Assembly: GCA_963718915.1 (NCBI GenBank)
Contig: CAVRAI010000015.1
Coordinates: forward strand, 30,001 to 62,000
DNA: 32,000 nt
Reading direction: 5' to 3'
Origin: an uncultured Chloroflexia bacterium
Lineage (GTDB): Bacteria; Chloroflexota; Ktedonobacteria; Ktedonobacterales; JADMIN01
Shown piece by piece: positions 932-23,759 of the stretch. The first letter of the stretch is position 1. Every line of letters starts with the position of its first letter. The notes beneath the pieces were generated by a model. That model did not search any database. It had not been told where the DNA came from and saw nothing but the letters and a program-made list of their open reading frames with translations. The position numbers and the translations under genes are program-made.

Positions 932-1067
<136 letters not shown>

Positions 1068-1096
1068 CTGTGGCTAGTGCGCAAAAGGCTCTCTGA

Positions 1097-1387
1097 ATGA
1101 TGCAGCATACAGAACATCTCTACGTGGTCACCGACGACAGCATCTTGCATGGCGAGCCAATTATCGTTGGCACTCGCACGCCGGTTCGCGCCATTGTCGA
1201 GTTGTGGCGTCAGGGGTTTGCGCCTGAGACGATACCGGCTCACCTGCCCCATCTCACGCTCGCGCAGGTCTTTGACGCGCTGAGCTACTACAGCGACCAC
1301 CAGGACGAGATCAACCAGTATATCGAGCGCAACCGCATCCCCGACGCGCTGATTGACCCGCTATATGGTGCGCGTTGGTTTCACTAG
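1097..1387 (+). CDS. DUF433-domain protein (antitoxin-like small DNA-binding protein)
   Basis: 96-aa ORF. The segment ILHGEPIIVGTRTPVRAIVELWRQGFAPETIPAHLPHLTLAQVFDALSYY matches the DUF433 pattern (GxPxIxGTRxxV...G......yP.Lt...i..Al.Y). Confidence 0.75.
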   Translation: MMQHTEHLYVVTDDSILHGEPIIVGTRTPVRAIVELWRQGFAPETIPAHLPHLTLAQVFDALSYYSDHQDEINQYIERNRIPDALIDPLYGARWFH

Positions 1388-1597
1388 CTATGATGTGTGG
1401 AGTCTGATTTCTTCCGGCCTCGCTCCTGAGATGACAAAAAAGGGATTACCAGCAGACAGACTTGTGGCATCATGGAGACTGTTGTATAGTAGCGAGGCTA
1501 TCTGTACGGTTGGTCGACTGAAGCGTCAGAAAGAAGTAAACAATGCCTACTGAGCCTGAGAGATTCGCTAATCTCTTCATTGCGCCATCCTCGAGGA

Positions 1598-2081
1598 ATG
1601 CACAATCTGTCGCCAAAGGAATTCGAGGGTTTCGTCGCGTATTACTACGACGAGCAGGATATATGTGAGAGAAGTTGGGCCCCACTTCCTCAGAGGCGTA
1701 GACCTTGAAATGCGGTTCCCTAGTAGGACACGCATTGTCGGAGGTGTCGAGTGCAAGCGATACCAACCTGAGCAACTTGTCACAGCTTCAATTGTCAGGG
1801 GAGTAATGGGGGCACCTGCGGTCTCCAGACGAGGGGCAAAGCCATTTGTCATCACCACCAGTGATTTTAATAAGCCCGCACGCCAGATGGCTGAGGCTGG
1901 GGCAAGGCAGGCATTTCTGATGAATGGCTCTCAACTTGTTCGCTATATCCTATATATCCGGGGATCACGACATGATGACGATGATACGATTGCTTCGATT
2001 CCGCCAGAGTTCTTCTGTAGTCAAGGTCATTCTCCCTGCCGCCCGGGTTGGAGACGCCAAGATACTTACCATTGCCAATAA
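1598..2081 (+). pseudogene. Mrr-like restriction endonuclease (Mrr_cat), frameshifted
   Basis: From ATG 1598 the reading is MHNLSPKEFEGFVAYYYDEQ..., which stops. The domain resumes in another frame: RGVDLEMR...GGVECKRYQPEQLVTASIVRGVMGA...GAKPFVITTSDFNKPARQMAEAG...[11 protein letters not shown]. At least one frameshift lies near 1655-1665. Confidence 0.6.
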
Positions 2082-2853
2082 CAAAGGTGGCGTTGGCAAG
2101 ACCACGACCGCCTATTATCTAGGTGCAGAGCTGGCGCGTCAGGGCGAACGTGTACTCCTGATTGATCTGACGGACAAGGAAACCTAACCGAATCGTGTGC
2201 CGGAGCATACTGAAGAACACGGCAGTGGAGTAGAGATTTTCCCTAATATAACGCAGTATTTCTCGGGACAACGTAACCATTGCAGGACTTGATCAAGTCC
2301 ACTAGCAAGGAGCGTTTAGCACCAGTCCTCAGCCTTTTCTTGGCTTCGTGACCTTGGCGGGAATTGTCGTCCTGACATTGATTCGCAGTTCTCTCAGGAT
2401 GTTCAAATGTTAAGCACACAACCGCTCGGAGACTGGGCGGCGTTCCTACCTGGATCATTATCGATACTCCCCCAGCAATGTCGGTCTCCACACCAGCAGG
2501 GTTGGCAGCAGCGAACTCTGTGATTGCTCCTATCCGCCCTCGGAGGCGGTCGCTGCCTGGAACCAGAATAAAGTTTGCTACGGGCGCGACAATGAATGCG
2601 CTGACAGGAACCAACGGGAAATTTCTCGGGACGGTGATCACCATTGGATACCTTAAACTCAGTCAAGGACTTCGAAAACCTATTTCTCCCGCCTACGCTG
2701 CAAGAATCCGGTGGTCGGGCATTCACCGAGAAGATTCCTATCGACAATCGGCTAGAGTATTTGGAACCCGGTGCGAACACAAGCGGAGCCAAAGCATACG
2801 AAAAACTGGCTATTGAAATACTAAATGCCGTCCAGTCGTGGCAAAATAGCTAA
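1972..2853 (+). pseudogene. ParA/Soj-like partition ATPase, split over several frames
   Basis: The N-terminus has the deviant Walker A motif ([37 protein letters not shown]) and stops at 2187. The ParA motif WIIIDTPPAMSVSTPAGLAAANSVIAPI appears at about 2451 in another frame. The C-terminal part (AFTEKIPIDNRLEYLEPGANTSGAKAYEKLAIEIL) lies in a third frame and ends at 2853. Confidence 0.65.
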
Positions 2854-2874
2854 CGAGTTGGAGGGAGGACAAGC

Positions 2875-3162
2875 ATGTCAGAACCAATAGGGGCAAAGGT
2901 TGAATCACGAACCACTCGACCAAGAACGCAAACGAACCCTAGGCCAAAAGTACCAAAACAGACGCTGCCGAAGCCGCCGAAGCCAATGCCCCCATCAAAA
3001 AGGAAGATGCTGCAACCGGAGTTGCTAAAAACCCTTGCTGGGAGTGATCGAGGAACAGCAATCACCACAGCGGCTATTACAGCGGCGCTCGCCGTCGTCA
3101 ACGATTGGCTGGCTATAGATCGTCCATTTCAGCAAAGTGTTCTGGGAAATACAACGAGTTAG
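2875..3162 (+). CDS. Small basic Pro/Lys-rich protein downstream of the ParA-like gene (possible partition adaptor; function unknown)
   Basis: 95-aa ORF with GGAGGGAGG about 10 nt upstream of the ATG. It occupies the position of a ParG/ParB-substitute gene. I recognise no family motif. Confidence 0.4.
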   Translation: MSEPIGAKVESRTTRPRTQTNPRPKVPKQTLPKPPKPMPPSKRKMLQPELLKTLAGSDRGTAITTAAITAALAVVNDWLAIDRPFQQSVLGNTTS

Positions 3163-3693
3163 TGGCGATACAGTACCAGACAAACGACAGAGCGGGTCCA
3201 ATGCCGAAGCCGATAGAGCACCTGGTACTGCATATTCCTACAGTCCACTCGCGATGGCTGATCCTTGCATCTAGCATTCGACTACGGAAATGACGAGTTG
3301 CCAGCGGTTCTTGCTCATGTTTCACAAGATACCTTGGTGAAATGGTCAACTTCGTGCAGTGAAGTTACCCAGGCAAAAAACCGCTCAATGGCAGTAGTAA
3401 TGCATCCATGATTGATGTTTCATCCACAGTACATGACCTACCATTAGAGCGTGGTGTGAAAAAACGCGTCATGTCAACCATTCGTGGCAGCGGACAGGTG
3501 ATGGACTGAAATCAAGGTCTGCGACTGAGATCGGTAAGCTCATTGTCGCGGACTTAGTTGTAAAGCAGTCGACCATCGTCGTCTATAGGTGTGAGAGCGG
3601 ACAGTCCTCCTGGCGGGGAAAGCGACCTAACTGTAACTGACGAAGTCTAGCGATACATATCAGTGCCGAGTATTTCCAGAAACCAGGCAAACA

Positions 3694-3801
3694 CAGATTG
3701 TGGCTCTGGAGGTCGTGGGTTCAAACCCCATCGGGCACCCCCATGATGCACGTCCCGCATCACGATGCCTCGAATGCTGATATCCTCGGCGTTCGGGGCA
3801 T
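3694..3801. repeat. Direct repeat copy 2 (attR-like): partial tRNA-His 3' half plus downstream flank
   Basis: Near-identical to 960-1067. It lacks the tRNA 5' half, so it is not a functional tRNA. Confidence 0.85.
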
Positions 3802-3857
3802 TTTCGCGTTCACGAGCGTCACTGTTTCGGGTAGCGGGGGATCATTCACGCGGTGCA

Positions 3858-3886
3858 TTGACGGCGACGATAAGAGTCGCTAGACT
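3858..3886 (+). promoter_or_regulatory. Candidate sigma70-type promoter for the 3949 membrane-protein gene
   Basis: TTGACG (3858-3863), a 17-nt spacer, then TAGACT (3881-3886). Confidence 0.45.
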
Positions 3887-3948
3887 AAGCGAACCATATG
3901 GAGCGAAGCAGTCATGCACCGTGTGCGCCGTTGAGGAAGGAGACGACG

Positions 3949-8080: not shown

Positions 8081-11000
8081 ATGCGTCACATGCGTCACTC
8101 AATCGTGCGCCAGTGGGCCCACATCGCCCGTGTCGCTGTCGTCTCTCTGATGATTCTGGTCGTCTTCCAATCGTCGGGGTTAGGCGCGGGTCCGCTCGGC
8201 CTTCTCGGCGTGGCGCATGCTGCCAGCCTGAAACCACAACCTCCGACCAATACGACATGATGTCGGGCGCTTCGTTCCCTATATCAATGCCCCGCAGCTG
8301 CCCAGTGGCAGCTGGACTCCCAAGCAGTCCACCGCGCCGCGCTCTCAGAGCCATCCAGCCACTGGCCAAACGCCAGCCTCAGGGCGCAAAGCTGGCGAAC
8401 AGGCGGACTTGCGCACGGCAGCGAGTTCGACCACCCTCAACAGCGATGGCACCTGGACCCTCACGTCGTATCCCGTGCCCGTCCATTATCAGGATGCTCA
8501 GGGTAACTGGCAGAATATCGACGACACCGTCGTCACCGATAGTTCAGTCTCGGGCTATGGTTATGGGAATAAGGCAAATGGTTGGCAAGTGCATTTTGCC
8601 CAACAGGCGGGTGGCTCCAAACTGCTCCATCTGCGCTATCCTGGCCTGACAGTCGCCGAGGCGCTGAACGGGGCGGCCACCGTCTCCGCGACGGCCAGTG
8701 GCTCGCAGATCATCTATCCGAGTGTGTTTCCCAGCGTGTTGATCTGCTCTATCTGGTCGGCAATGCCCATCTCGAAGAAACGCTTCTGCTCCACACTGCG
8801 CAGACACCTAGCAGCTATAGCTTCACCTATCACGTTCCCGGCGCGACTGCCCGGTAGACGATGCCGGCAATATTGTCTTCCTGGACACGCACGGTAATGT
8901 CCTGTTAACGGTTGGCGGCATCTCGATGTATGAAGCGGACGCGCAGGGACAGCTGCTGCCCACAGGCAAAGAGACAGATAATGTCACGGTGACACTCTCA
9001 GGAACAAGCCCCAATTATACTGTCACGCTGACGCCAGATCAGGCCTGGCTCACTGATCCCTCACGCCATTTCCCGGTAGCGATTGACCCGACCTTTTCGG
9101 GGCCGATATCGCCATAGCAGCACACGAGTGGCAACACCTATGCTGACACATTCGACGAGAGCGGCAATCCCAGCCTGGGCTTCAATACAATGTCAATACC
9201 GAGCGCATTGGCAATTGCAATGCGATTCCCTCAGGGAGCCACTGGCTATGGTACCGGCACCAATCGGTCATACATCAAGTTCCCGATTGGATCGGCCCCA
9301 GCGGGCGCGCGCGTCACCAGCGCAAACTTGTCGCTTTACCAACTCAGCGCCTATGGGGGCGCGGCAACGACAATTGCCGCCGACGAGATCAAGACTGCAT
9401 GGAATGCGACGACACTGACCTGGAACAACCACCCCACAAGCGTCGCAATAGTCGGGATCGGAACCGCCGAACGGACAACGTACAATGTACTGGTGGCAGG
9501 TCGATGTGACCCAGGCGATCTACAATTGGTGGCAGAATGGCCAGACCGACAATGGCCTCCGGCTGCAGCTATACCGACGAGAGCCAACCGTGTGATCTGT
9601 TCGCCTCCGACGATCGCGGCATCACGAACGAGCTCCCGCAGCTCACGGTCAACTATGTCCAGGACACGACCACGCCTGGTGGCGCCATCACGGCAATCAA
9701 TGGCGGTTCATCCCCAACACCAACAATCCCAACGTCACCCTCGCTACGTCGGTTACGGATACTGGCTCGATCACCGAGTGGGGCAGCAACTGGAGCAACA
9801 CGAATGGGCATTGGTGCCAATGGCGGCACCGCGGCGCATTGGGTGACCAATGGCGCGCAACTGGCCGCCGATACGTCGAGCTGTGGCGCGACGGCTTGCG
9901 CCGCGCAGACATTCATTCCGTCGAACGCCTCGACCTGGTCCAATGTCGCGAACTGGCCCACCTTCACCGCGATGTTCAAGTCAGATCTCGGCGGCCAGTT
10001 CAATTTCGGGATGGTGGCCAGCGGCAATAACAATACCCGCTTCGATCTGGTGGCGGCCGCAGGGATCCTCGGCCTTCACCAGCTTTGGAGTATTCGACCA
10101 CGGCAGGCTCCTTCACCACGCTGGCAGTCAATATTCCCTTCACGGCGAATACCTGGTACTATGGACAGGTCGACTTCACGCGCAGCATCTCGCAGAAATC
10201 TATCTCTGGCCGGTTGGGCAGACCAAACCAGCCGTACCGACCATATTCGCAATGGCGTCTACATGTCGCAGCCGGGCTTGAACTTCTGGGAGCAAGGTGA
10301 CAACAGCGGCAGCGGGTCTCCATACCTACACCATCGCCAATGTCATCGCGACCGCCAAGGATACGAATAGCGGGACCATTGGCTACGGCGTCTATGGCAT
10401 GGAGTTCTCGAATGACGGCAGCACCTGGAGCTGCCCAGCTGGTGGGACCTGGTGCGTCGCGGCCAGCCAACCAGCCCACCTGGACGCTGAGCGCGGGGGA
10501 CGGCGCCAAGACGGTCTCCCTCCGCACGATTGACAACGCGGGCAAAATCTCAAGTTCAGCAAGCAGGACGATTATCTACGATACCACCGGGCCGACCGCC
10601 AGCGTCCTCAGTCCGACGGCAGGCCACGATGTGCGCGGTATCGTGACAGTCAACGCTACTGCCACCGACCCAGCCGCGAGCGATGGATCCTTTTCGGGCA
10701 TTGCCAGTGTCGCGCTCTTCATGGATGGCGGCCAGGTGGGATCGCCTGTCACTGGAACGGATTGCGCCGACCTTCCTCTGGGATACGACCAACGTGGGTT
10801 CTGGCCCGCACACGCTGACTGTGCAGGCCACCGACAACGCGGGCAACGTCGGCCCAATGAGCGCGGGCGTCGTCGTCTCGGTGAGCAACACCGGCCAGAT
10901 GAGCTATGAGACCTATGCGCTGCGTGACCTGCCTGCGGGCGACATCAAGGCCGGGGTCAACGTGGCGACTGGGAATTCCGTCGTCACCGAGCAGGATATC

Positions 11001-12703
11001 GACGTAGCGGGCCGGGGACCAGACCTCGCGCTGGGTCGCGAGTACAACGACCTCATGCCCTCGCCTAAACTCTTCGGCTATGGTTGGTCGAGCGATCTCG
11101 ACGAGAGCATCTACGTCAATGCCGACAACTCGGTGACGTACTATGACGCCAGTGGCGGCGTTCACCTCTTCTTGCCCAATGGGTCGGGTGGCTATATCAC
11201 CCCGCCAGGCTTGTTCCTGACGCTGGCGCATAATCAGGATGGCAGCTATACCCTGACCTCACGCGACCAGACGAAGACGAACTTCAACGTTTCGGGCTCT
11301 CTGAACAGCGTGGTCGACCGCAACGGCAACGCGCTGACCATCGCCTATGATGCGAACAATCTGCCGACGACGATGACCGATTCTTCCGGGCGGACACTGA
11401 CCTTCACGACGAGCGGTGGGCACATCACCCATATCGCCGCGCCCGGCTCGCGCACCTTTGACTACGCCTACAATGCTGCCGGGAACCTGACCGACTACAC
11501 CGATCCGCAGGGGATCGTCACCCACTACGACTACGATGCCAGACCATCGCCTGACCAAGATCACGCTGAATTACCAGTCTGGTGGGCCATCTGACGTGCA
11601 GACCAATGTCGCCACAACGCTCAGCTTATGACGGCGTCCAACCGGCTGGTGAGCCTGGTGGACCCGATGGGCTTCGACGCCGGGATCTGCTATGATTCCG
11701 GCGGAAACTGCTATGGCGCGGATCATCCCTGCGACGGAGCGACGGGGATTCCGGGTCGACCTGTGTGGCGCAATTCTGGAAGCTGGACACCATCCAGATC
11801 GCCTGCAGTTCCGGTCTATCAAGATACTGTCTATACCGCCGCCAATGATGGCTCGGGCGCCGTCACGAAGATCACCGATGCGGCTGAGAAACGATACACT
11901 ATATGCCTACGACGCAGCAACGGCGAACTGACGGAACTTACCGACGCCAATGGGCAATGTCACCGATTACACCTATGACGGCAACGGCAATATGCTGACG
12001 CAGGTGGTGGATCCATCTGGCCTGGCGCTCACGACCTCCTGGACCTATGACAGCGCCAACAACGTCTTGACCGAGACCAATCCCATCCGGACATCGTCAC
12101 CAAGTACACCTATGATGCGCCGACAACCGGGAACGTCGTCACGACCGTCCAAAATTACGAGAGCGGCGGCCCGACGAATAGCGATACCAACGTCACCACC
12201 AGCAACACCTACGATAGCTACGGCGAGGTGCTGACCTCGACCGATCCGCTGGGCGTGGTGACGAAGTACACCTACGACAGCTATGGCGACACGCTGACGA
12301 CCACCGAGAACTACCAGTCGGGTGGGCCGTCGGACGACCATACCAATGTGACGACCAGCGCCACCTATGACGACCTGGGCGAGCAGATGACCTCCACCAA
12401 CGCGCTCGGCATCGTCACCGCGACGGTCTACGATATTCGCGGCAACGTGCAGCAGACGACGGCCAATTACCAGTCGGGCGGGCCAACTGACGCCCAGACC
12501 AATGTCAAGACGCAGTACGGCTACGACGCGCTCGGTCGCCAGATCACCACGACCAACCCGCGCGGCATCGTCACCAAGACCGACTATGATCTTGATGGGC
12601 GTGAGACGCAGACGACTGCCAACTACGTCAGTGGTGGCGCGTCAGGACAGCCAGACCAACGTCGACCACGACGACAAAATATGATGGCGCGGGCAACGCG
12701 ACG
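8081..12703 (+). pseudogene. N-terminal ~4.6 kb of a giant Rhs/YD-repeat protein, broken by at least a dozen frameshifts (or assembly indels)
   Basis: ATG 8081 encodes a signal-peptide-like N-terminus (MRHMRHSIVRQWAHIARVAVVSLMILVVFQSS...). Successive pieces sit in different frames:
- a wall-associated N-terminal region (TLNSDGTWTLTSYPVPVHYQDAQGNWQNIDD);
- a DNRLRE-like module (RSYIKFPIGSAPAGARVTSANLSLYQL...LTWNNHP);
- an Ig-like module (TIIYDTTGPTASVLSPTAGHDVRGIVTVNATATD...HTLTVQATDNAGNVG);
- the Rhs N-terminal region (GRGPDLALGREYN...FGYGWSSDLD);
- many YD repeats (e.g. VTKYTYDSYGDTLTTTENYQSGGPSD). Confidence 0.8.
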
Positions 12704-15238
12704 GTGGCGACGGACGCCAAGGGCAACACGACCACGACGACCTACGATGCCGACAACCGCGCCACCGAGACCAAAGTCCAGGACAGTAGCAACACGGTGG
12801 TGCAGGATACAACGACCGCCTACGATGCCGTCGGAAATACGGTGACCTCGCAGGTGTTCGACAAGACGGGCACACTCCTGACGACGACGACCTATACCTA
12901 TGATGCCGCCAACCGGCTGCTGGCCCAGACCGATCCTCCCGCCGATCCCGGCGCATCGGACCAGAGCGGGCAGTCGAATGTCACGACCTACACCTATGAC
13001 ACCAACGGCAACACGACCGAGACGCTAGTCACCAATGCCGCGCCAATCGGCCCTGGCACGGTCACCGATACGAAAGCGACCTTCGATGCGCTCGGGCGGC
13101 AACTGACCAAGACGCAGGACGCCGATACTGGCTCGCCCAAGACCACCAGCTACGTCTACAATGCGGCTGGGCAGCAGACAAGCATGACCGACGAGGCCAG
13201 CAACACCACCACCAGCAGCTACGATGCATTGGGCCGCGTCACTAGCGTCACCAACCCCGACAGCACCATCGATACGACGATCTATGACGCGGCGGGTGAG
13301 CAGTTGACGCAATCGAACAGTGCGGGAACGACCATTGATTCCTACGACCCGCTGGGCCGAGTGAGTACCGAGCAGCGCAAGAACGGCAGTGGTGTCTCGC
13401 AGGGGATCGTCGCCTACACCTATGACGCCAATGGCAGTGTGCTGCAGAAGGTGACAACACTCGCCGATGGCAGCCAGGTGACGAGCGTCAGCACCTACGA
13501 CGCCCTCGACCGCCAAGCGACGATGAACGACGGCACGCGCAGCTACACCTACGACTTGGCGGGCAACGTCACCCATATGCAAGTGGTCGTCTCCGGCAGC
13601 GGCTACGCGGTGCAGACCGACTCCACCTATGACGGCGGCAATCGCGTCTCCAGCCTCTACGACAAGGTGGGTCCGTCGGCCACCATCTTGCACAGCTACG
13701 GCTATACCTACGATGGCAACGGCAACCGCAGCAGCATCGTCGAGGATGGCGCGACCACAACCAACTACAGTTACGACGACCTCAACCAACTGACTCAGGT
13801 GAAGGTCGGCTCGACCACGACTGCGACCTATACCTACGATGCCAATCACAACCGCACCAGCCTGGTGACGGCCGCCGGGACAACTGGCTATACCTACGAC
13901 GACTCGGACCATCTGACCCAGAAGACCGATCCCGACGGCAAGGTCACGAATTATGGCTACGACACCTCAGGCAACCTGACCAGCGCCAGTTATGATCCAA
14001 CCGGCGTCAACCAGGTCACCCAGTATCACTACGATACCAATAGTCGGCTGACCGAGATCGACCAGCCGAGTGGGACAACGATCCAGTTTGGCTACGACAC
14101 CGACAACAACCGCACCACCAAGACGATTACCAGCGGCGGGGTGAGTCACAGCGTCAACGACGTGTATGTGCTCGGCCATCTCGCCTATGAGACCGACGAG
14201 AACGGGACGGTGCTCGCCACCTTCACCTATGACTCGTCGGGCGTACCGGTCAGCGTCCAGGTCGGCAGCGACCCAAACGCCTCCCCGCGCTACTATTACG
14301 TCTACAACGGCCACGGGGATGTCGTGGCGCTGGTCGACGCGCAGGGGAATGTTGCCGCAAGCTATGCCTACGATGCCTTCGGCCAACTGACCACGGCCTC
14401 CGAGAGCTTTGGGAGCGGAACCATCTGGACCAATCCGTACCGCTATGATGGGCGTGACAGCGTGCGTTACGATGGCGAGACAGATCTCTATTGGATGTCT
14501 GTCCGCGCCTATGACCCTACACTGGACCGCTTCCTTTCACGTGATCCGTTGGGGCGTGCGCCACTGTACTTCAGCGACCAGCCGTATGTCTACGCGGGTA
14601 ATAATCCGCTCGTCAACGTTGATCCCAGCGGGCAACGATTCACTACTGATTCGGGCCAAGTGCGAGCGGCAGGTTCTGCGAGTTCACCAAGTCGCGTGAC
14701 AACGTATCCTGGGCGCCCGCTGGCCGGCGGTAAAGGCAAGGAAAGAGCGTCAGGAAAAGAAGAGAACATCTGGTATTGGAAAGAGGATGGTGGTGGCAGG
14801 CATACGGCGTGGATGGGGCCGATTGAGCCTGATCCCAAAGGCTGGCACTTCAATCTTCATATTGAAAACAAGAAAGGCGAAACCCTTGCTAACTACCACT
14901 TCTACTTCTTCGGGTGGTTGGGTATGGGTAGTGGACACGAAGCTTTCGTCTGGTATGTGATAGATACAGACGGCAAGACAACGCGTTTTAAACAATCCTT
15001 TGAGGTGGAAAACAGCGTGTTAGGGCTAGCCGCTACGAAGGTAGCAGTGGATATGACGAGAATGATCGCAAGCAGATTTTCTTTGCCCATGGAATTCAGA
15101 GAAAAACTCATGGGCGAGGATGAAAATGTGTACTCGCGGATATTTGAGGAGGTGTTTGGTAAGAGTAACTATCTGCAAGACATGTTGAGTCGTCTTAACC
15201 AGAGACCTTTGACCAAGAAAGAGAAGTTTGGGCTCTAA
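12704..15238 (+). CDS. Rhs/YD-repeat core plus C-terminal polymorphic toxin domain (intact 844-aa reading frame; the frame is open slightly upstream of 12704)
   Basis: YD repeats run continuously (xxTYxYDxxGNxxx). The core end is WTNPYRYDGRDSVRYDGETDLYWMSVRAYDPTLDRFLSRDPLG...YVYAGNNPLVNVDPSGQ. A 200-aa unrelated tail follows. Confidence 0.85.
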   Translation: MATDAKGNTTTTTYDADNRATETKVQDSSNTVVQDTTTAYDAVGNTVTSQVFDKTGTLLTTTTYTYDAANRLLAQTDPPADPGASDQSGQSNVTTYTYDTNGNTTETLVTNAAPIGPGTVTDTKATFDALGRQLTKTQDADTGSPKTTSYVYNAAGQQTSMTDEASNTTTSSYDALGRVTSVTNPDSTIDTTIYDAAGEQLTQSNSAGTTIDSYDPLGRVSTEQRKNGSGVSQGIVAYTYDANGSVLQKVTTLADGSQVTSVSTYDALDRQATMNDGTRSYTYDLAGNVTHMQVVVSGSGYAVQTDSTYDGGNRVSSLYDKVGPSATILHSYGYTYDGNGNRSSIVEDGATTTNYSYDDLNQLTQVKVGSTTTATYTYDANHNRTSLVTAAGTTGYTYDDSDHLTQKTDPDGKVTNYGYDTSGNLTSASYDPTGVNQVTQYHYDTNSRLTEIDQPSGTTIQFGYDTDNNRTTKTITSGGVSHSVNDVYVLGHLAYETDENGTVLATFTYDSSGVPVSVQVGSDPNASPRYYYVYNGHGDVVALVDAQGNVAASYAYDAFGQLTTASESFGSGTIWTNPYRYDGRDSVRYDGETDLYWMSVRAYDPTLDRFLSRDPLGRAPLYFSDQPYVYAGNNPLVNVDPSGQRFTTDSGQVRAAGSASSPSRVTTYPGRPLAGGKGKERASGKEENIWYWKEDGGGRHTAWMGPIEPDPKGWHFNLHIENKKGETLANYHFYFFGWLGMGSGHEAFVWYVIDTDGKTTRFKQSFEVENSVLGLAATKVAVDMTRMIASRFSLPMEFREKLMGEDENVYSRIFEEVFGKSNYLQDMLSRLNQRPLTKKEKFGL
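14636..15238 (+). other. Rhs C-terminal tip 1 (CT1): candidate toxin domain, family not recognised
   Basis: It starts immediately after DPSGQ (14621-14635). The DNA turns visibly AT-richer here. The sequence includes ...ENIWYWKEDGGGRHTAWMGPIEPDPKGWHFNLHIENKKGETLANYHFYFFGWLGMGSGHEAFVWYVIDTDGK... I cannot assign a catalytic motif. Confidence 0.6.
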
Positions 15239-15317
15239 CGTGTTGGCGTTTGTCTAAGTGTGACAGTACAGTGATAGGTGAGTCGTAGCGCCCACACCAG
15301 TTGCCCAGGAGAGTTCA

Positions 15318-15968
15318 ATGCCGCATAATGAAGGCCCATCGCAAGAAGCGGGATGGAAGTATGGTCCCGTTTTGGTGACGTATGGAGCGTTCTCCATCCG
15401 CGAGTGTTGGAAGGTGTTTGACGGCATCCGAAGGTTTCACTTTCATGAACTCGTGTTTAGAGCAACGCCATCGTCTCCCAACCAAGACGCAGAAACGATT
15501 TCTATCGCGCTAATTGGTCTGCGGCGGACTGATCTGGTCTATGTGGTGCGTTGGGCGCGTATCTGGGTTAACGGGCGTCGTCATGATTTGGCAATGAATC
15601 ACCGCGCGACTTCACACATGCCAGACGATACTGCACCGCTTTCTCTGCATGTTGCTGAAAACGATAAGAATACCAGCGATGAGTTAGACGGGTCAGATAC
15701 TGGATGGGGCAAAGAGCTGTCCTCGGATCCAAATGGCGCGCAACCCGAGGAAGCAAGCGATGAGGATGTTGATGAAGCCGCTTGGGAAGCCAGGATGGTA
15801 CATGAGACAGAACTTGTTGCGCAGGCCCTTCAGGAACTAGAAGCGCAACACCCCGAACTTGATCTCGAGCCTTTCGAAGAGACGAATAATCCCGATCCAG
15901 AGTTTGACGAGGAATTGAGACGGAGCACTCAGGCCGAGGATAATTGGGACAACAAGATGCAGAGTTAG
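15318..15968 (+). CDS. Candidate cognate immunity protein for CT1 (globular N-domain plus highly acidic tail)
   Basis: 216-aa ORF starting 80 nt after the Rhs stop, with AGGAGAG upstream. The C-terminal ~100 aa are rich in D/E (SDEDVDEAAWE...ELDLEPFEETNNPDPEFDEE). Being the first gene after an Rhs tip is the canonical immunity position. Confidence 0.5.
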   Translation: MPHNEGPSQEAGWKYGPVLVTYGAFSIRECWKVFDGIRRFHFHELVFRATPSSPNQDAETISIALIGLRRTDLVYVVRWARIWVNGRRHDLAMNHRATSHMPDDTAPLSLHVAENDKNTSDELDGSDTGWGKELSSDPNGAQPEEASDEDVDEAAWEARMVHETELVAQALQELEAQHPELDLEPFEETNNPDPEFDEELRRSTQAEDNWDNKMQS

Positions 15969-16040: not shown

Positions 16041-17111
16041 TGTTCACGTTCTCCCTGTGCAACCAGTATTCAGGTTGGCTGCGCCCCCAACAACTCGTCG
16101 CAGTATAACCACGTCTATAACGGCCACGGCGATGCGGTTACGCTGGTCGATGCCAGTGGCAATACCACCGCCAGCTACAGCTACGATGCCTTCGGCCAGT
16201 TGATCAAGTTCAGCGACAGTTTCGGGGGGACGACTACCTGGACCAACCCCTATCGCTACGACGGACGTGATGGCGTGCGCTATGATGGCGAGACGGGCCT
16301 CTACTGGATGAGTGTGCGCGCCTACGACCCGGCGCTGGGGCGCTTCCTCAGCCGCGATCCGCTGGGCCGTGTCCCGCTCTTCTTCGCCGACCAGCCGTAT
16401 GTCTACGCGGGCAACAACCCGCTCCTCAATGTCGATCCCAGCGGGCAGTTCATGGCGACGGAAGGCGTCTCCAATGCACAGGCGCACGCCATCATGAAGC
16501 AAAAAGCCCGCATATATTGGACCCCACCAAGACCTAGAAAGGGGTGGAATGGTTGCTATGAGGGAGATAGAGCGTGTCAGGGGGCTAAGGCAAAACACGA
16601 CGCTCAGGGAGCCTACAACGAGATTACCAACCAGCTTGTCGAACTGTGGGGAAAAGCCTTCAAAGATTGGCTAAATGAGCATTTCAATATCTTTGAAAAG
16701 CTCATTCACTGGACACTAGATCAGGTACTGGATTGGTTAGGTGGCGAAAGCGCCAAAGCGCTGTTTAGCACGCTGACAAAGGATGGGACAGGTGCCCAAG
16801 TCTGGATGCTTGCTCCTTGGCTCGCGTCAATGTGGGAGGCGAATCAGGATGCCTCATGGTTTAGAGTTCCGAAGAACATTGTCAACTTTGGACGCTGGGA
16901 AGAGGACACCGATTTCGCACTAGGAATTGGTGGAGTTGTCTCTATTGGAGCAGGATTAGCTGGAGGCAACGAAGGAGCTGTTGGGTTTGGTTGGGGCATA
17001 ATTGAGGCTTCAGAAGGTTGGACAACGTTGGATGACTCGGTATGGGATCAGCTACTCGAATATGTAACCAGTTGGCCTATTGGCGGACCTGGACACATGC
17101 AGGTTCGGTAG
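16041..17111 (+). CDS. Orphan Rhs C-terminal cassette (core 3' block plus second, unrelated tip CT2); no convincing own start codon
   Basis: The frame is open from 16041, and the ORF track starts at a TTG at 16200. Bases 16101-16448 encode YNHVYNGHGDAVTLVDASGNTTASYSYDAFGQL...WTNPYRYDGRDGVRYDGETGLYWMSVRAYDPALGRFLSRDPLG...NNPLLNVDPSGQ, homologous to 14294-14635. The 220 aa after DPSGQ are unrelated to CT1. Confidence 0.7.
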   Translation, partial: CSRSPCATSIQVGCAPNNSSQYNHVYNGHGDAVTLVDASGNTTASYSYDAFGQLIKFSDSFGGTTTWTNPYRYDGRDGVRYDGETGLYWMSVRAYDPALGRFLSRDPLGRVPLFFADQPYVYAGNNPLLNVDPSGQFMATEGVSNAQAHAIMKQKARIYWTPPRPRKGWNGCYEGDRACQGAKAKHDAQGAYNEITNQLVELWGKAFKDWLNEHFNIFEKLIHWTLDQVLDWLGGESAKALFSTLTKDGTGAQVWMLAPWLASMWEANQDASWFRVPKNIVNFGRWEEDTDFALGIGGVVSIGAGLAGGNEGAVGFGWGIIEASEGWTTLDDSVWDQLLEYVTSWPIGGPGHMQVR

Positions 17112-17137
17112 CAAAGAGTAATCAGAAAAGAGGCACA

Positions 17138-17875
17138 ATGCGGAACATGAGCCAGTATCTCGTAGGTAGGCGTATACACACTATGTTATCAGTAAGCTGC
17201 GTGCTAGGGATCCTTTCCGTCGTCCTGTGCACCTTGCTTGGTTGCGGTCTTCCTGCTCAAAGTGTGACATCAGCGCCAACGCCAACTATTCAACAGATCT
17301 TAGCGCATGCGCGTGCTGTACGCATTGGGGATGGCATCATCAACTTAACACTAAGCAGTACCAAGCAGGGACAGCCACCTGAACATGGCACAGGAACGAT
17401 AAAATTCACCAGTCAACCGGAGCGCCTAGACTTAGGCATAACACTTTCCTCAGGCGAGACAGTTTTTTCCGGCGAAGAGATTGCTGATGCAGCCACAAAT
17501 AGTGTTTATGCTAAAGTCGACGTTCCCTCAAAATTTACAAGCAATACCTGGACAAAGACACAGAACGGCTTCGATTTTGCCAGCTTCAACAATGTGCTTC
17601 ACTACGCCAATCTCGGTAATCCTGTGCTCTTGGGCGGTGAATCGCTGCAACATGTACGTGTTTGGCATCTGCGCGGATCTGCGGTCAATCAAGGGCCAAA
17701 TACATCACTTGATGTGTATCTACGACAAGACAACTTCTTGCCCGTCGAGGTTGTCCTTACCACCCGAGGAAATCCCTCAGGAACTGTGACTTATTTCTAC
17801 ACCGCACTCAATACTGGGATCTCGATTGTATTGCCCGTGCTCCCTACCCCTACAGTCGGAGCGTCCTCACAGTAG
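17138..17875 (+). CDS. Putative lipoprotein (candidate immunity or accessory protein of the orphan cassette)
   Basis: ATG 17138 is preceded by AAAAGAGG. The signal peptide has a lipobox: RRIHTMLSVSCVLGILSVVLCTLLGC. The mature part is beta-rich and has no motif I recognise. Confidence 0.6.
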   Translation: MRNMSQYLVGRRIHTMLSVSCVLGILSVVLCTLLGCGLPAQSVTSAPTPTIQQILAHARAVRIGDGIINLTLSSTKQGQPPEHGTGTIKFTSQPERLDLGITLSSGETVFSGEEIADAATNSVYAKVDVPSKFTSNTWTKTQNGFDFASFNNVLHYANLGNPVLLGGESLQHVRVWHLRGSAVNQGPNTSLDVYLRQDNFLPVEVVLTTRGNPSGTVTYFYTALNTGISIVLPVLPTPTVGASSQ

Positions 17876-17947
17876 CTCTGGTTGTGGCGATGTCCGATAG
17901 CAGCCATGCTGCCAAATTTGAGTGCGACTTGCCGATGATAGGAGAAT

Positions 17948-18274
17948 ATGATGACCCAGCCCATGTCTATCATGGACTTTCTCTTTGGCATAGGTCAGGC
18001 GATACTAGTGGTGATTTTAGGATTGTTGATTCTACTTTTCCGTACCCCACGAAGTGAGCGCTTACTGCGCAGACGGCGGTTCTTGTATGTTCTGAGCGCG
18101 ATAGCATGCGTTGTCATTCAACTGATGATAACAAGTTTATTGGGGACAGTACTCTCAGGTTCACCAATACACGCGCTTACACTACCTACGATTCTCGGTT
18201 TGCTTTTGATGAGTCCGTTCTATGTTCTAGGGATAGCTGTCTTCTTTCGTGCCATCAGTTATAGGCCCAGTTGA
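17948..18274 (+). CDS. Small multi-pass membrane protein (candidate immunity protein)
   Basis: 108-aa ORF with TAGGAGAA upstream. It has three to four hydrophobic helices (FLFGIGQAILVVILGLLILLF, FLYVLSAIACVVIQLMITSLLGTVL, LTLPTILGLLLMSPFYVLGIAVFF). Confidence 0.6.
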   Translation: MMTQPMSIMDFLFGIGQAILVVILGLLILLFRTPRSERLLRRRRFLYVLSAIACVVIQLMITSLLGTVLSGSPIHALTLPTILGLLLMSPFYVLGIAVFFRAISYRPS

Positions 18275-18307: not shown

Positions 18308-18853
18308 ATGAGCAGCCTGAACACGACACGCGCAGGCGGCAGCGCCACGACACTGCTGGATAGCATCGGCTATAGCGGCGCAGGGAGCGGCAGGACATGC
18401 CACCAGCACCAGCGTGGCTACGACGCCGACAACAACCGCACCACCAAGACCATCACCAGCGGCGGGGTGAGCCATAGCGTCAACGACGTCTATGTGTTTG
18501 GGCATCTGGCCTACGAGACTGATGAGAACGGGACGGTGCTCGCCACTTTCACCTATGACTCGCACGGCGCGCCCGTCAGCGTCCAGGTGGGGAGCGCTCC
18601 CAATACCTCCCCGCGCTACTACTATGTCTATAACGGCCATGGCGATGTCGTTGCCCTCGTTGATGCACAGGGGAATGTGGCTGCCAGCTACGCCTACGAT
18701 GCCTTCGGCCAGTTGACCTCGGCCAGCGAGAACTTCGGCAGCGGCACGACCTGGACGAACCCATATCGCTATGATGGGCGCGATGGTGTGCGCTACGATG
18801 GCGAGACGGCTTGTCTTGGATGAGCGTCCGCGCCTATGATCCCGCGCTCGGAT
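18308..18853 (+). pseudogene. Tip-less orphan Rhs core fragment
   Basis: It encodes DNNRTTKTITSGGVSHSVNDVYVFGHLAYETDENGTVLATFTYDSHGAPVSVQVGS...YYYVYNGHGDVVALVDAQGNVAASYAYDAFGQL...WTNPYRYDGRDGVRYDGET, nearly identical at the protein level to 14090-14525. A 1-nt deletion relative to the other copies (GAGACGG-C, about 18808) shifts the frame. Homology stops at about 18851, before the DPxGQ motif. Confidence 0.8.
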
Positions 18854-19288
18854 AGCCTACTCCACGCCACTCTTGTCGCCCACAATTTGAAGCGCTTTGG
18901 TGGCTATCTGCCGCAGCGGAGCGCGCAGGGCGGCGGGCTGGCGGACGTGTACCAGGAAGTCGAGCGTGAGCAGGTTGTGCGCGATCTACTCCAGTTGCGT
19001 CGCGCCACGGCGAAAGATCACCCCATGCTCCGCTGGCTCCAGTGTAGCCATCATGGCCGGGATAACTTGCCGCGCCCGCTCCATCGTCGTCTGCAGCAGC
19101 GCCTCAACCTGATCGCGTGGCGCCGCGAAGGCGCCCGACCTGCTCGTCGGCGATATCCGCCAGTTCGTCCGCTCGTTGCGCGCGCAGCGGCAGACCGGGT
19201 ACGGTTGGAGATACTGGCTGGGCATGGCGCAATAGCTTGTCCCAGACAGCATCAGGCGATGATGCGTGGACATTATCAGGAGCTTGTC

Positions 19289-20362
19289 ATGACGCCAGCG
19301 GATATCGATTTGCAACGATTGTCTCAGCAGCGGCTCGCAGGCCATCACGTCGCGACGCCGGAGGAGGTGGTCGGCTGGTTCGGCGCGGTCCAGTCGCAGG
19401 AATACCTGGGGGCGATCTGGTCGCTGGGCATGCGCATGGGTGGCGAGACGACCGACGATGTGATCGAGCGCGCTTTCACTGAGGGGACAATCCTGCGCAC
19501 CCATGTCATGCGCCCAACCTGGCATTTCGTGGCCCCCGCCGATATTCGCTGGCTGCTGGCTTTGACCGCGCCGCGCATCAAGGCCACAATGTCCTACTAT
19601 GACCGCCAGCTTGACCTTGACGACACGCTCTATGCCCGCAGCAACGAGGTCATCGCCAGGGCGCTGGAGGGCGGAAAGCATCTGACACGCGCCGAGCTAG
19701 GGAAGGCGCTGGCGGAGGCTAACATCGTCGTAGCGGGGCAGCGGCTGGCCCATATCGTCTCACACGCCGAGCTAGACGCGGTGGTGTGCAGCGGCCCCCG
19801 GCGCGGGAAGCAGTTCACCTACGCGCTGCTGGTGGAGCGCGCACCAACCGCGAGGACGTTGCCCCGCGATGAGGCGCTGGCCGAGCTGACGCAGCGCTAC
19901 TTCACCAGCCACGGCCCAGCGACGGCCCGCGACTTCGCCTGGTGGTCGGGGCTGACGATGGCCGATGCCCAGACGGGCCTGAAGATGGTCGGCTCTGACC
20001 TCACCCACGAGGAGATCGCGGGCCAGACGTACTGGTTCCCGGCATCGCTGTCGCCTGCCCCAGATGCATCTGAGGTGGCTTTCCTGCTGCCGACCTATGA
20101 CGAGTTGCTGGTAGGCTACCATGGTTTCGGCGCGGCGCTGACGGGCGGGAACGGCAACGGCGAGCGGGCGGCATTCAGCGCGACGATGGTGATCAGCGGC
20201 CGGGTCGTCGGCAACTGGCGGCGAACAATCACCAGGGGAGCCGTGGTAATCGAGCTGGCTCCATTCGCGCCGCTGACCGCATCCGAACGCGAGGCCGTCT
20301 CCATCGCCGCTGGGCGCTACGGCGCGTTCCTCGGCTTGCCGGTGGAGTGTGTGGGGCTGTAG
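19289..20362 (+). CDS. Winged-helix DNA-binding domain protein of the AlkZ/YcaQ (DUF1006) type, a putative DNA glycosylase family
   Basis: From ATG 19289: MTPADIDLQRLSQQRLAGHHVATPEEVVGWFGAVQSQEYLGAIWSLGMR...ILRTHVMRPTWHFVAPADIRWLL...RYFTSHGPATARDFAWWSGL...LLPTYDELLVGY. The 150-aa N-terminal extension in the ORF track is Arg-rich and probably not coding. Confidence 0.75.
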   Translation: MTPADIDLQRLSQQRLAGHHVATPEEVVGWFGAVQSQEYLGAIWSLGMRMGGETTDDVIERAFTEGTILRTHVMRPTWHFVAPADIRWLLALTAPRIKATMSYYDRQLDLDDTLYARSNEVIARALEGGKHLTRAELGKALAEANIVVAGQRLAHIVSHAELDAVVCSGPRRGKQFTYALLVERAPTARTLPRDEALAELTQRYFTSHGPATARDFAWWSGLTMADAQTGLKMVGSDLTHEEIAGQTYWFPASLSPAPDASEVAFLLPTYDELLVGYHGFGAALTGGNGNGERAAFSATMVISGRVVGNWRRTITRGAVVIELAPFAPLTASEREAVSIAAGRYGAFLGLPVECVGL

Positions 20363-22403: not shown

Positions 22404-23759
22404 ATGCCCGGAGACCTGCCATTCTTGCCGAGTCCGGTCGCTTCCGGGCCATGGCCGACGTTTAGTCTCGATATAGCCACCCGCGAAAGCATTTCCCTCG
22501 GTAAAGGTCCACGGGCTGGAGGCGGAACGTACGTTCTGCCGCAGGGTTCCCCGGTGTCGGGGCCGCCAAACTCGAATCCCGGTGGTGTCTCAGGGCAGGG
22601 CCAGCCCATTCGTGTGGCAGGGCCGGGCGGCCCAATCAACTACCATCCGGCGCCAGTGGCCCGTGCCCCGGTGGGCGAACCAGGTGGAGTCAGGCCGCCC
22701 CAAAAGCCCATCCGAACGGCTGGCCCGCATATGGGTGGTTCGCACACCGGGTCTCCGGGTGCCCCGCCACCTGCGCAATCCGCGCCACCCCCACCGCAGG
22801 ACGCGACGTCTGCCCAGCTCGCGCCCGCATCTGGCGAGGATCAACGCGCTCGCGAAATGCGCGAAATAGCCGAGGATGAGAGGTGGGCGCGTGCAACCAC
22901 GGCAGCAGCGCCGCCGTTCGCGCGAACGCTCCAGTTCACCGCCTACCATCCCAATACCGTCGCCGTCGAGACCTGGAACACGCTGCTCGTCTACACCTAT
23001 GTCACCGAGGCGCTGGCAGACATCCAGGCTGACGCGGGTACCTTCCCAGAACTGGGCAACGCGCCAACCGTGGCCAAAGGGCAATCTTCGCGTGTGGTGG
23101 CGCGTGACGTCGAGTTAACCGTTGAGGCGCACATGGAGGGCGTCACGTTTACCCCGGCGAAAGAAACGTTCACCTTGCGTGAGAACTGGAAGCGCTCGCT
23201 CTTCCGCTTCTCTGGCGAGGCCACACTGGCGGGACGCGAACAGCGCGGCTGGATCGACATCTACGCCGGGCCGATGGTCCCTATCGCCCGCATTGATATT
23301 GCGTTCTCCTTTCGCAAAGGTGGAACGCAACAACTCGCCACCAGCCCGCCACGGGGCATGATCGTCACCAGTAACATCTACGATGTGGCATTCATCTCAT
23401 ACTGCCATCGCGACCGTGAGGCATTCCGCCAGGCATGCGAAGAATACCACCGCTTTGGCATCGCCATCTATACCGACGAGCAACTCGAAGCCGGAGCAAA
23501 CTATGAGGTCGAACTGGCCAGGATGATCGCGGAGGCGAATATCTTCCATCTACTCTGGTCACACGGATCGGCACGATCGATCGAATGTCAGAAGGAGTGG
23601 CTCTCCGCGTTACAGCGTGAACCTACCGAGAGATTCATCAAGCCGTGGTACTGGAAACAGCCGCTGCCGCCACTCCCTGAAGAGTTCAGCCAGCACCGCA
23701 TCTCGTTCAAGTATGAGCCGCTCAAGCGCCGTCTCTTGCGGCCAGCAACCTGGTTCTAA
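22404..23759 (+). CDS. TIR-domain protein with a Pro/Gly-rich N-terminal region and an unassigned beta-rich middle domain
   Basis: ATG 22404 is preceded by GAGGAGG. The C-terminal ~125 aa (from about 23379) read YDVAFISYCHRDREAFRQACEEYHRFGIAIYTDEQLEAGANYEVELARMIAEANIFHLLWSHGSARSIECQKEWLSAL. This is a TIR_2-like pattern (FISY..D, D..l..G, S..S..C..E). Residues ~20-150 are low-complexity P/G-rich. Confidence 0.75.
   Translation: MPGDLPFLPSPVASGPWPTFSLDIATRESISLGKGPRAGGGTYVLPQGSPVSGPPNSNPGGVSGQGQPIRVAGPGGPINYHPAPVARAPVGEPGGVRPPQKPIRTAGPHMGGSHTGSPGAPPPAQSAPPPPQDATSAQLAPASGEDQRAREMREIAEDERWARATTAAAPPFARTLQFTAYHPNTVAVETWNTLLVYTYVTEALADIQADAGTFPELGNAPTVAKGQSSRVVARDVELTVEAHMEGVTFTPAKETFTLRENWKRSLFRFSGEATLAGREQRGWIDIYAGPMVPIARIDIAFSFRKGGTQQLATSPPRGMIVTSNIYDVAFISYCHRDREAFRQACEEYHRFGIAIYTDEQLEAGANYEVELARMIAEANIFHLLWSHGSARSIECQKEWLSALQREPTERFIKPWYWKQPLPPLPEEFSQHRISFKYEPLKRRLLRPATWF

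Follow-up and report, generated by a model that had tools for sequence, protein, structure and literature searches.

A candidate effector-immunity cassette of a very rare, unassigned family in a WapA-like Rhs/YD-repeat locus of an uncultured Chloroflexia bacterium

The 32,000 nucleotides analysed here, hereafter the window (contig CAVRAI010000015.1, positions 30,001 to 62,000 of the forward strand, assembly GCA_963718915.1), contain an Rhs/YD-repeat gene whose C-terminal region, CT1, is directly followed by a small gene on the same strand. Together the two probably constitute a candidate effector-immunity cassette of a new and very rare family, carried by a polymorphic toxin locus of WapA-like type (monoderm-type, DNRLRE-bearing). 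CT1 is situated after the autoprotease motif of the Rhs core, the two genes are inherited together and evolve under purifying selection, the family occurs in two architectures, and the 216-amino-acid partner is devoid of export signals. The same pair recurs in an independent locus on a contig from an NCBI metagenome assembly, designated L002. The features of the carrier gene and the cassette are as follows.

8409..12604, + strand: 5' part of the Rhs/WapA-like gene (DNRLRE domain, YD repeats), with at least 10 frame changes according to NCBIfam matches, stop-free segments and a frame plot of G+C at third codon positions (GC3)
12605..14635, + strand: intact 3' part of the Rhs shell, closing with the plug/autoprotease region of Rhs_assc_core (approximately 14369-14635) and the motif NNPLVNVDPSGQ; matches to RHS_repeat, TIGR01643, NF041261 and TIGR03696
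14636..14764, + strand: pre-toxin linker, CT1 residues 1-43, basic (isoelectric point, pI, 10.4) and predicted to be disordered (predicted local distance difference test score, pLDDT, below 50 in the first model)
14765..15235, + strand: folded domain, CT1 residues 44-200, in the AlphaFold2 model a seven-stranded antiparallel beta sheet (46-124) and then helices (129-189)
14840..14908, + strand: conserved hairpin GWHFNLHIENKKGETLANYHFYF, CT1 residues 69-91, candidate active site, with invariant G69, H71, N73, G81, N86 and H88 (alignments A4 and A7)
15307..15311, + strand: Shine-Dalgarno-like AGGAG, 6 nucleotides 5' of the partner ATG, read directly from the sequence
15318..15968, + strand: 216-amino-acid cytoplasmic partner, candidate immunity protein, identical to P0002 (homologs P0003 and P0004; synteny with CT1 in L002; ratio of nonsynonymous to synonymous substitution, dN/dS, 0.30)
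15345..15605, + strand: conserved N-terminal domain of the partner, residues approximately 10-96, W..YGPVLVTYGAFSIRE ... TDLVYVVRWARIWVNGRR (alignment A2; weak reciprocal-best likeness to the partners of the stand-alone homologs, with shuffle tests)
15618..15773, + strand: variable acidic/polar insertion of the partner, residues approximately 101-152, poorly conserved in P0003, mostly deleted in P0004 and absent from distant partners
15774..15905, + strand: acidic C-terminal segment of the partner, residues approximately 153-196, AW..TELVAQALQELEAQHPELDLEPFEETNNPDPE, nearly invariant (alignment A2, three close homologs)

The two-gene cassette and its conservation

The open reading frame (ORF) that ends with CT1 runs from 12704 to 15238 and encodes 844 amino acids; its frame is free of stops from 12605, giving 877 codons. 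It contains 11 RHS repeats (Pfam RHS_repeat, E 2.1e-52) together with YD-repeat and RHS-core matches (TIGR01643, NF041261). The match to TIGR03696 (Rhs_assc_core, NCBIfam) covers residues 589-677 of the stop-free frame and has its last base at 14635, on the codons for NNPLVNVDPSGQ. CT1 therefore occupies 14636-15235 and is followed by a stop codon at 15236-15238. The codons for DPSGQ, where the Rhs core terminates, are at 14621-14635, so that the first-pass annotation was exact in starting a 200-amino-acid CT1 immediately after this motif. Multiple RHS/YD shell repeats and a TIGR03696 core ending in PxxxxDPxG[LQ] directly before a variable C-terminus place the gene among the Rhs/YD-repeat (WapA-like) proteins, but the residue after DPxG is Q and not the usual L. 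The G+C content is about 0.60 in the Rhs shell and about 0.51 over CT1 and the partner.

The partner gene begins 79 nucleotides after the CT1 stop codon, and no terminator-like site was found between the two. Residues 1-100 of the protein form a basic half (pI 9.8), while residues 101-216 hold 35 Asp or Glu among 116 residues and have a net charge of about -29. The acidic tail reported in the first-pass annotation is thus present and strongly acidic, but it is not uniform, since the stretch of approximately residues 101-152 is variable and that of approximately 153-196 is nearly invariant. No hydrophobic signal or transmembrane segment was found in the partner. The GC3 frame plot is uninformative for this ORF because GAN codons place G at codon position 1, and its coding status was settled from the homologs and from dN/dS.

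In L002 the sequence ...NVDPSGQ is followed by a full-length CT1 homolog with 56% identity to CT1 of the window. Approximately 105 nucleotides after it comes the partner homolog P0003 (53% identity to the 216-amino-acid ORF), and an orphan Rhs core fragment starts approximately 55 nucleotides after P0003, the same arrangement as in the window. CT1 and its partner are thus inherited as a unit, with a cognate small ORF on the same strand directly 3' of a variable C-terminal region. Between the window and L002 dN/dS is 0.23 for CT1 and 0.30 for the partner, at a dS that is saturated at about 1.5. When the window is compared with locus L008, which carries P0004, the nucleotides of the AW..TELVAQALQELEAQHPELDLEPFEETNNPDPE segment differ and the protein is kept. 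Both ORFs are real genes under purifying selection and not chance ORFs. A third Rhs-linked relative of CT1, P0008, was found on a short contig, L012, with 39% identity over the conserved block. It stops after the half that corresponds to the beta sheet (L012 245-940), and the helical half (...HLPDMLKDLSTKTPIT) is read in a different frame, a sign of a frameshift or of misassembly in L012.

Rarity, predicted structure and stand-alone relatives

CT1 gave no match in Pfam, NCBIfam, PHROGs, PADLOC or the PDB sequences, in agreement with the first-pass annotation, which had seen no recognisable toxin motif in it and had proposed the profile and structure searches reported here. No Pfam family at E <= 10 was common to more than one of the 11 CT1 members, and CT1 and its homologs had no significant profile match among the described toxin families (Tox-/Ntox, HNH, PD-(D/E)XK, deaminase, ART, EndoU and colicin C-termini). 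The partner and its homologs were likewise without a match in Pfam, NCBIfam, PHROGs and PADLOC, the SUKH/SMI1, Imm*, barstar and CdiI families included. Searches of the PDB sequences with single sequences and profiles of both proteins returned noise only, for example antibody heavy chains and ILF3; the best E value for the partner profile was 0.13, to an unrelated protein.

Relatives of CT1 are few. A word-indexed search of 5.8 billion clusters found one homolog, P0001, with 56% identity; as this search missed the 844-amino-acid protein of the window itself (P0007), which is present in the collection, its negatives are not exhaustive. When 1.84 billion representatives were scanned exhaustively with HMMER, eight matched at E <= 1e-3, one of them spuriously, and a profile search added three further relatives. 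P0009, a 2409-amino-acid repeat protein with E 3e-8 in the HMMER scan, was rejected as a low-complexity artefact because its match runs through five stretches of TDTDG-type repeats. Two genome-collection scans, with CT1 and with the partner, returned no relative, and the source genome itself was not returned either. The metagenome scan gave the L002/L003 contig again and nothing else, and the plasmid scans gave no match. The CT1 family is tiny and unannotated, with about a dozen relatives found.

A first AlphaFold model of CT1, built on an alignment of two sequences, was discarded (pLDDT 47.9). With an 11-sequence alignment, AlphaFold2 gave a model of residues 38-200 with pLDDT 78.2 and a predicted template-modelling score of 0.76, in which a helix of 19 residues and some shorter ones come after the seven antiparallel strands. 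Foldseek found no match to this model in the PDB or in BFVD. The residues W59, D66, G69, H71, N73, G81, N86 and H88 are invariant in the family, and P62, E64, Y87, Y91, G93, W106, D110 and A132 nearly so; no Arg or Lys is invariant. The His-containing segment that the first-pass annotation had singled out as a catalytic candidate does belong to the most conserved block, with H71, N73, N86 and H88 unchanged across 11 sequences, but H75, also part of it, is variable (E in P0010, G in P0012). From the secondary structure of the model, pairing of the strands 69-78 and 83-96 should bring H71, N73 and H75 to the same face of the sheet as N86, H88 and Y90. The H-phi-N-phi-H pattern was considered by inspection as a degenerate histidine-triad or 2H-phosphoesterase motif and rejected, because the central nucleophilic His is replaced by Asn, both motifs fall in one hairpin and profile support is lacking.

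Outside the window the family is known from Rhs C-termini and from small proteins that begin with a signal peptide; most members are of the latter, stand-alone kind. The stand-alone relatives P0010-P0017 are 147-217 amino acids long, and their mature portions can be aligned over the entire CT1 domain with 20-26% identity (tblastn E about 1e-8 within the fetched loci). The linker of CT1, which is partly conserved with L002, is replaced in them by the signal peptide. A basic n-region, a hydrophobic h-region whose Kyte-Doolittle mean is 2.2-3.0 and an A-x-A site are present in seven of the eight, which are therefore taken to be exported by the Sec pathway. Conserved Cys pairs in some of them suggest disulfides.

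In five of the seven stand-alone loci (L010, L015, L016, L017/L018 and L019) a gene on the same strand lies 95-300 nucleotides 3' of the CT1 relative. No signal peptide or transmembrane segment was found in these partners. They are related to each other (L017 against L010, E 4.5e-10; L017 against L015, E 0.017) and have three co-linear motifs in common with the ORF of the window: W..G.LV..YG.F.(L/I), then D(L/V)..V(V/I)..(A/V)(R/K).W(V/L).G.RR, and finally (L/I)V..AL.ELEA. The last corresponds to a helix, ...IVEEALKELEA, that the distant partners retain. Among 796 ORFs from all loci the hidden Markov models of the subfamilies had their reciprocal best non-self matches on the syntenic partners (E 0.009-0.02), and the real score was reached by 0, 0, 1 and 10 of 3000 composition-preserving shuffles in the four tests. 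Judged from these sequence comparisons, the partner in the window and the stand-alone partners are probably homologous.

Near P0016, in L019 9716-14947, a 923-amino-acid protein with Pkinase and Baseplate_J domains is encoded, as is a 344-amino-acid protein with a weak WXG100 match that is followed by a small ORF. The latter two could be a toxin locus of the LXG type, in which case the CT1-like gene would lie in a conflict-system neighbourhood.

Proposed function and competing explanations

In the proposed mechanism the payload would be enclosed by the Rhs shell and released after DPSGQ by the aspartyl autoprotease of the core. The basic 43-residue linker and the domain of approximately 155 amino acids would then enter a neighbouring cell. 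There CT1 would work as an intracellular enzyme toxin, with catalysis or ligand binding centred on the invariant His/Asn patch of the hairpin (H71, N73, N86, H88) together with E64 and D66 from the preceding strand and D110 from a following strand. The producer cell would be protected by the cytoplasmic partner, whose N-terminal domain and conserved ALQELEA helix would bind CT1 in a one-to-one complex and block it. By analogy, this would be the same logic as that of a secreted enzyme restrained by an intracellular inhibitor.

Several observations weigh against an effector-immunity pair. The Rhs carrier is frameshifted at least 10 times upstream of 12605, and CT1 may therefore not be delivered in this genome. 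Acidic, Cys-containing relatives with signal peptides look extracellular, which is awkward for an intracellular target. The hhalign probability between the two partner subfamilies is as low as 1.5-18%, and no recognisable partner was found downstream of P0014 (L014 1733-2689) or P0012 (L013 154-1122). Finally, the partner homolog P0004 (L008 1-882) has no CT1 gene in the 354 nucleotides upstream of it; P0004 may be an orphan immunity gene.

The alternative that survives best, and one compatible with an effector-immunity origin of the pair, is that the locus is a decaying relic in this genome, with the Rhs carrier a pseudogene and CT1 and its partner disused. This is a serious possibility, though it falls short of being probable. 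The stop-free segments and the GC3 frame plot show that the frame changes 10 times or more from about 8.4 to 12.6 kb, which the first-pass annotation had missed. The NCBIfam matches there fall in three frames (DNRLRE at 9118-9600; YD repeats at 10647-11591, 11932-12231 and 12051-12700), and no continuous ORF leads from the N-terminal export or anchoring region to the toxin; because of the frameshifts, no intact signal peptide or N-terminus can be defined. A degraded island adjoining a tRNA gene (933-1005) and a truncated orphan Rhs fragment further downstream point in the same direction. Against decay, no break interrupts the final 877 codons of the Rhs gene, CT1 or the partner, the other long genes of the window are intact as well, and indels in a single multi-copy gene could be long-read assembly or polishing errors. 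The frameshifted part, the 5' two-thirds of the gene, is either a real pseudogene or the site of indel errors confined to this multi-copy gene. Orphan or stored modules can moreover be returned to use by recombination (Koskiniemi et al. 2014, as cited in PMC12704120). Since the carrier gene looks disrupted in this genome, the cassette may have the status of a stored module or a relic, and not that of a deployed weapon.

The first-pass annotation had proposed a toxin-immunity pair and had gone on from the acidity of the candidate inhibitor to a nucleic-acid-directed toxin. The first part stands as a cognate two-gene cassette of an unassigned family, on the synteny in L002 and the partners of the stand-alone relatives, whereas the step to a basic toxin acting on nucleic acid is not supported. 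In its full form this second explanation makes CT1 a basic nuclease or other nucleic-acid enzyme that the acidic tail of the partner neutralises by nucleic-acid mimicry, in the manner of barstar or the colicin Im proteins. It would account for the strong negative charge of partner residues 101-216, for the protein-level constraint on the nearly invariant acidic segment HPELDLEPFEETNNPDPE, for the invariant His residues and for the basic pI of the complete C-terminal regions (9.0 for CT1 with its linker, 9.5 in L002). Nucleases are the commonest class of payload with cytoplasmic immunity in Rhs and contact-dependent inhibition systems, and the secreted RNases T1 and Sa are themselves acidic.

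The basic part of CT1 is, however, the 43-residue linker only, and the folded domain (44-200) is near neutral with a pI of 6.6. Of seven stand-alone homologs measured, six have pI values of 4.0-4.8 and net charges of -7 to -19 (the seventh, P0011, has a pI of 6.3), and three of the four complete stand-alone partners are neutral to basic (L015, L017 and L019, pI 8.0-9.5). Within the tail, acidity peaks in the lineage-specific variable insertion, which is missing from P0004 and the distant partners. Phosphate binding would have to do without an invariant Arg or Lys. Pfam gave no match to HNH, PD-(D/E)XK, barnase/T1, EndoU, colicin E3/E5/D or Ntox families, and Foldseek matched no solved nuclease. 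Charge is complementary in five of six pairs, with a polarity that reverses between the subfamilies: the Rhs-linked toxins of the window and L002 have net charges of +3 and +6 and their partners -25 and -14, while P0010, P0015 and P0016 have -16 to -19 and their partners +1 to +7. L010 is the exception, both of its proteins being acidic (-2.5 and -12). Complementary charge with reversed polarity favours a physical complex between toxin and partner over nucleic-acid mimicry. A basic nuclease neutralised by mimicry is thus unlikely, and a nucleic-acid or nucleotide target for CT1, possible in itself, has no positive support.

The colicin E-type DNases and rRNases resemble the cassette in having a cytoplasmic acidic cognate inhibitor encoded directly 3' of the toxic domain. 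The Im proteins differ from the partner in being compact four-helix proteins of about 85 amino acids with no long tail; CT1 has neither an HNH (beta-beta-alpha-Me) nor an E3-like signature, and the acidity of the partner is not family-wide. Neither the HNH and colicin families for CT1 nor the Im family for the partner gave a match. Barnase and RNase Sa with barstar are nearer in organisation, since the stand-alone CT1 homologs are of about 110-160 amino acids, have signal peptides, are encoded beside a small cytoplasmic protein and are acidic, as are some secreted RNases. Barnase-like domains are also reused as C-termini of polymorphic toxins. CT1 nevertheless shows no sequence or Foldseek similarity to barnase, its topology is sheet-then-helices and not helices-then-sheet, and neither the barnase/T1 fold nor the invariant catalytic Glu/Arg/His set of the N1/T1/barnase family was found in it. 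A Sec-secreted enzyme with a cytoplasmic inhibitor, as in barnase-barstar, would be the closest functional analogy.

The third and weakest explanation, that the target of CT1 lies outside the cytoplasm (the wall, the membrane, or an extracellular ligand or metal) and that the downstream gene is a regulator or accessory factor, was suggested by the prevalence of Sec-exported small proteins in the family and is improbable. The signal peptides, the Cys pairs and the strong acidity of the stand-alone relatives agree with it, the invariant or nearly invariant His, Asn, Asp and Glu residues could form a metal or ligand site, and two stand-alone loci lack a partner gene. Proteins that confer immunity to toxins acting on the envelope are as a rule exported or membrane-bound, but the partner has no signal peptide or transmembrane segment in any subfamily. 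It also lies directly 3' of CT1 in both Rhs loci with visible downstream DNA (the window and L002) as well as in five of the seven stand-alone loci, and the charge complementarity within pairs suggests that the two proteins bind each other directly. Export by the Sec pathway is compatible with a cytoplasmic inhibitor, as barnase and RNase Sa illustrate.

A broader reading can be offered tentatively, as doubtful for the present: the family may be an unrecognised enzyme fold with a new toxic activity and a dedicated inhibitor family, an ancient module of secreted enzyme and intracellular inhibitor that resembles barnase-barstar and is unrelated to it, deployed as a Sec-secreted protein or as an Rhs payload with the charge polarity swapped between the two forms. 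Polymorphic toxin loci, those of the Rhs type among them, have already yielded new enzymatic activities and inhibitor folds. The cassette defines a family without annotation, distinguished by its extreme rarity, by a reasonably confident predicted structure with no Foldseek match in the PDB and by a two-gene module found in Rhs-fused and stand-alone secreted forms. With these two forms, usually accompanied by a cytoplasmic partner, it offers a small and clean experimental system (about 155 plus 130-216 amino acids), and if the family is toxic it would contribute a new class of effector and a new fold for immunity proteins. Its practical value is modest: many Rhs C-termini are unassigned, and this genome may carry an inactive copy.

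The Rhs locus and its neighbourhood

Downstream of the cassette two further pieces of Rhs core were found.

16041..17111, + strand: orphan module 2, an Rhs core-end fragment (to DPSGQ at 16448) with an unrelated C-terminal region, CT2 (16449-17108); DNA repeat D1 and TIGR03696 match
18308..18823, + strand: orphan Rhs core fragment 3, truncated before DPxG; repeats D1 and D2, RHS_repeat and YD-repeat matches

These core-end fragments are DNA repeats with 72-85% nucleotide identity; repeat D1 pairs 14251-14550 with 16064-16363. The fragment at 16041-16448 closes with NVDPSGQ, as the main gene does, and is followed by CT2 and two small ORFs of membrane type. Orphan module 2 marks the 3' boundary of the CT1 cassette. 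The order of main gene, C-terminal region with candidate immunity gene and orphan modules is the classical layout, and it brackets a variable cassette of exactly two ORFs.

The locus resembles the WapA-type Rhs/YD-repeat toxins of Bacillus subtilis and Streptococcus suis in its DNRLRE N-terminal region, its YD/Rhs repeats and its Rhs_assc_core ending in PxxxxDPxG. The variable C-terminal toxin after a short pre-toxin linker, the immunity gene directly 3' and the subsequent orphan modules of core fragment and C-terminal region are further likenesses. A DNRLRE-Rhs-PreT-CT layout with orphan modules has been described for WapA of Streptococcus suis (PMC12704120). The locus differs in that the gene is frameshifted and has Q after DPxG, and in that the characterised WapA C-termini are tRNases or NucB-like nucleases, none of which CT1 matches. 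Repeated core-end fragments, each with a different C-terminal region and small ORFs 3' of the main gene, are also a feature of the orphan toxin/immunity arrays of Escherichia coli and Salmonella (Koskiniemi et al. 2014, as cited in PMC12704120). Unlike these, the context in the window is monoderm-like: two FemAB genes lie near the Rhs locus, and no type VI secretion system, PAAR or VgrG genes were found in the window. The DNRLRE domain and the nearby FemAB genes indicate a monoderm, WapA-like system.

A stretch of CT2, GIGGVVSIGAGLAGGNEGAVGFGWGII, resembles a glycine zipper. The two ORFs after CT2 encode a protein with a lipobox-like signal (17042-17875) and one of 108 amino acids with several transmembrane segments (17948-18274). 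The region 16449-18274 gave no family matches; CT2 and the following ORFs could be a membrane-active toxin with membrane immunity. Fragment 3 abuts a gene for an AlkZ-like DNA glycosylase (window 18308-20362), and the ORF has an N-terminal extension of approximately 170 amino acids without a domain match. A few kb from the Rhs locus, at 22404-23759, a 451-amino-acid protein with a C-terminal TIR_2 domain is encoded, possibly a defence or NADase protein. At the other end of the window the tRNA gene at 933-1005 is followed by approximately 3 kb of DNA with lower G+C content (933-3900) that contains only short, seemingly broken ORFs. By eye these resemble a DUF433 protein, an Mrr-type endonuclease and a ParA fragment, and the stretch is probably a degraded integrated element.

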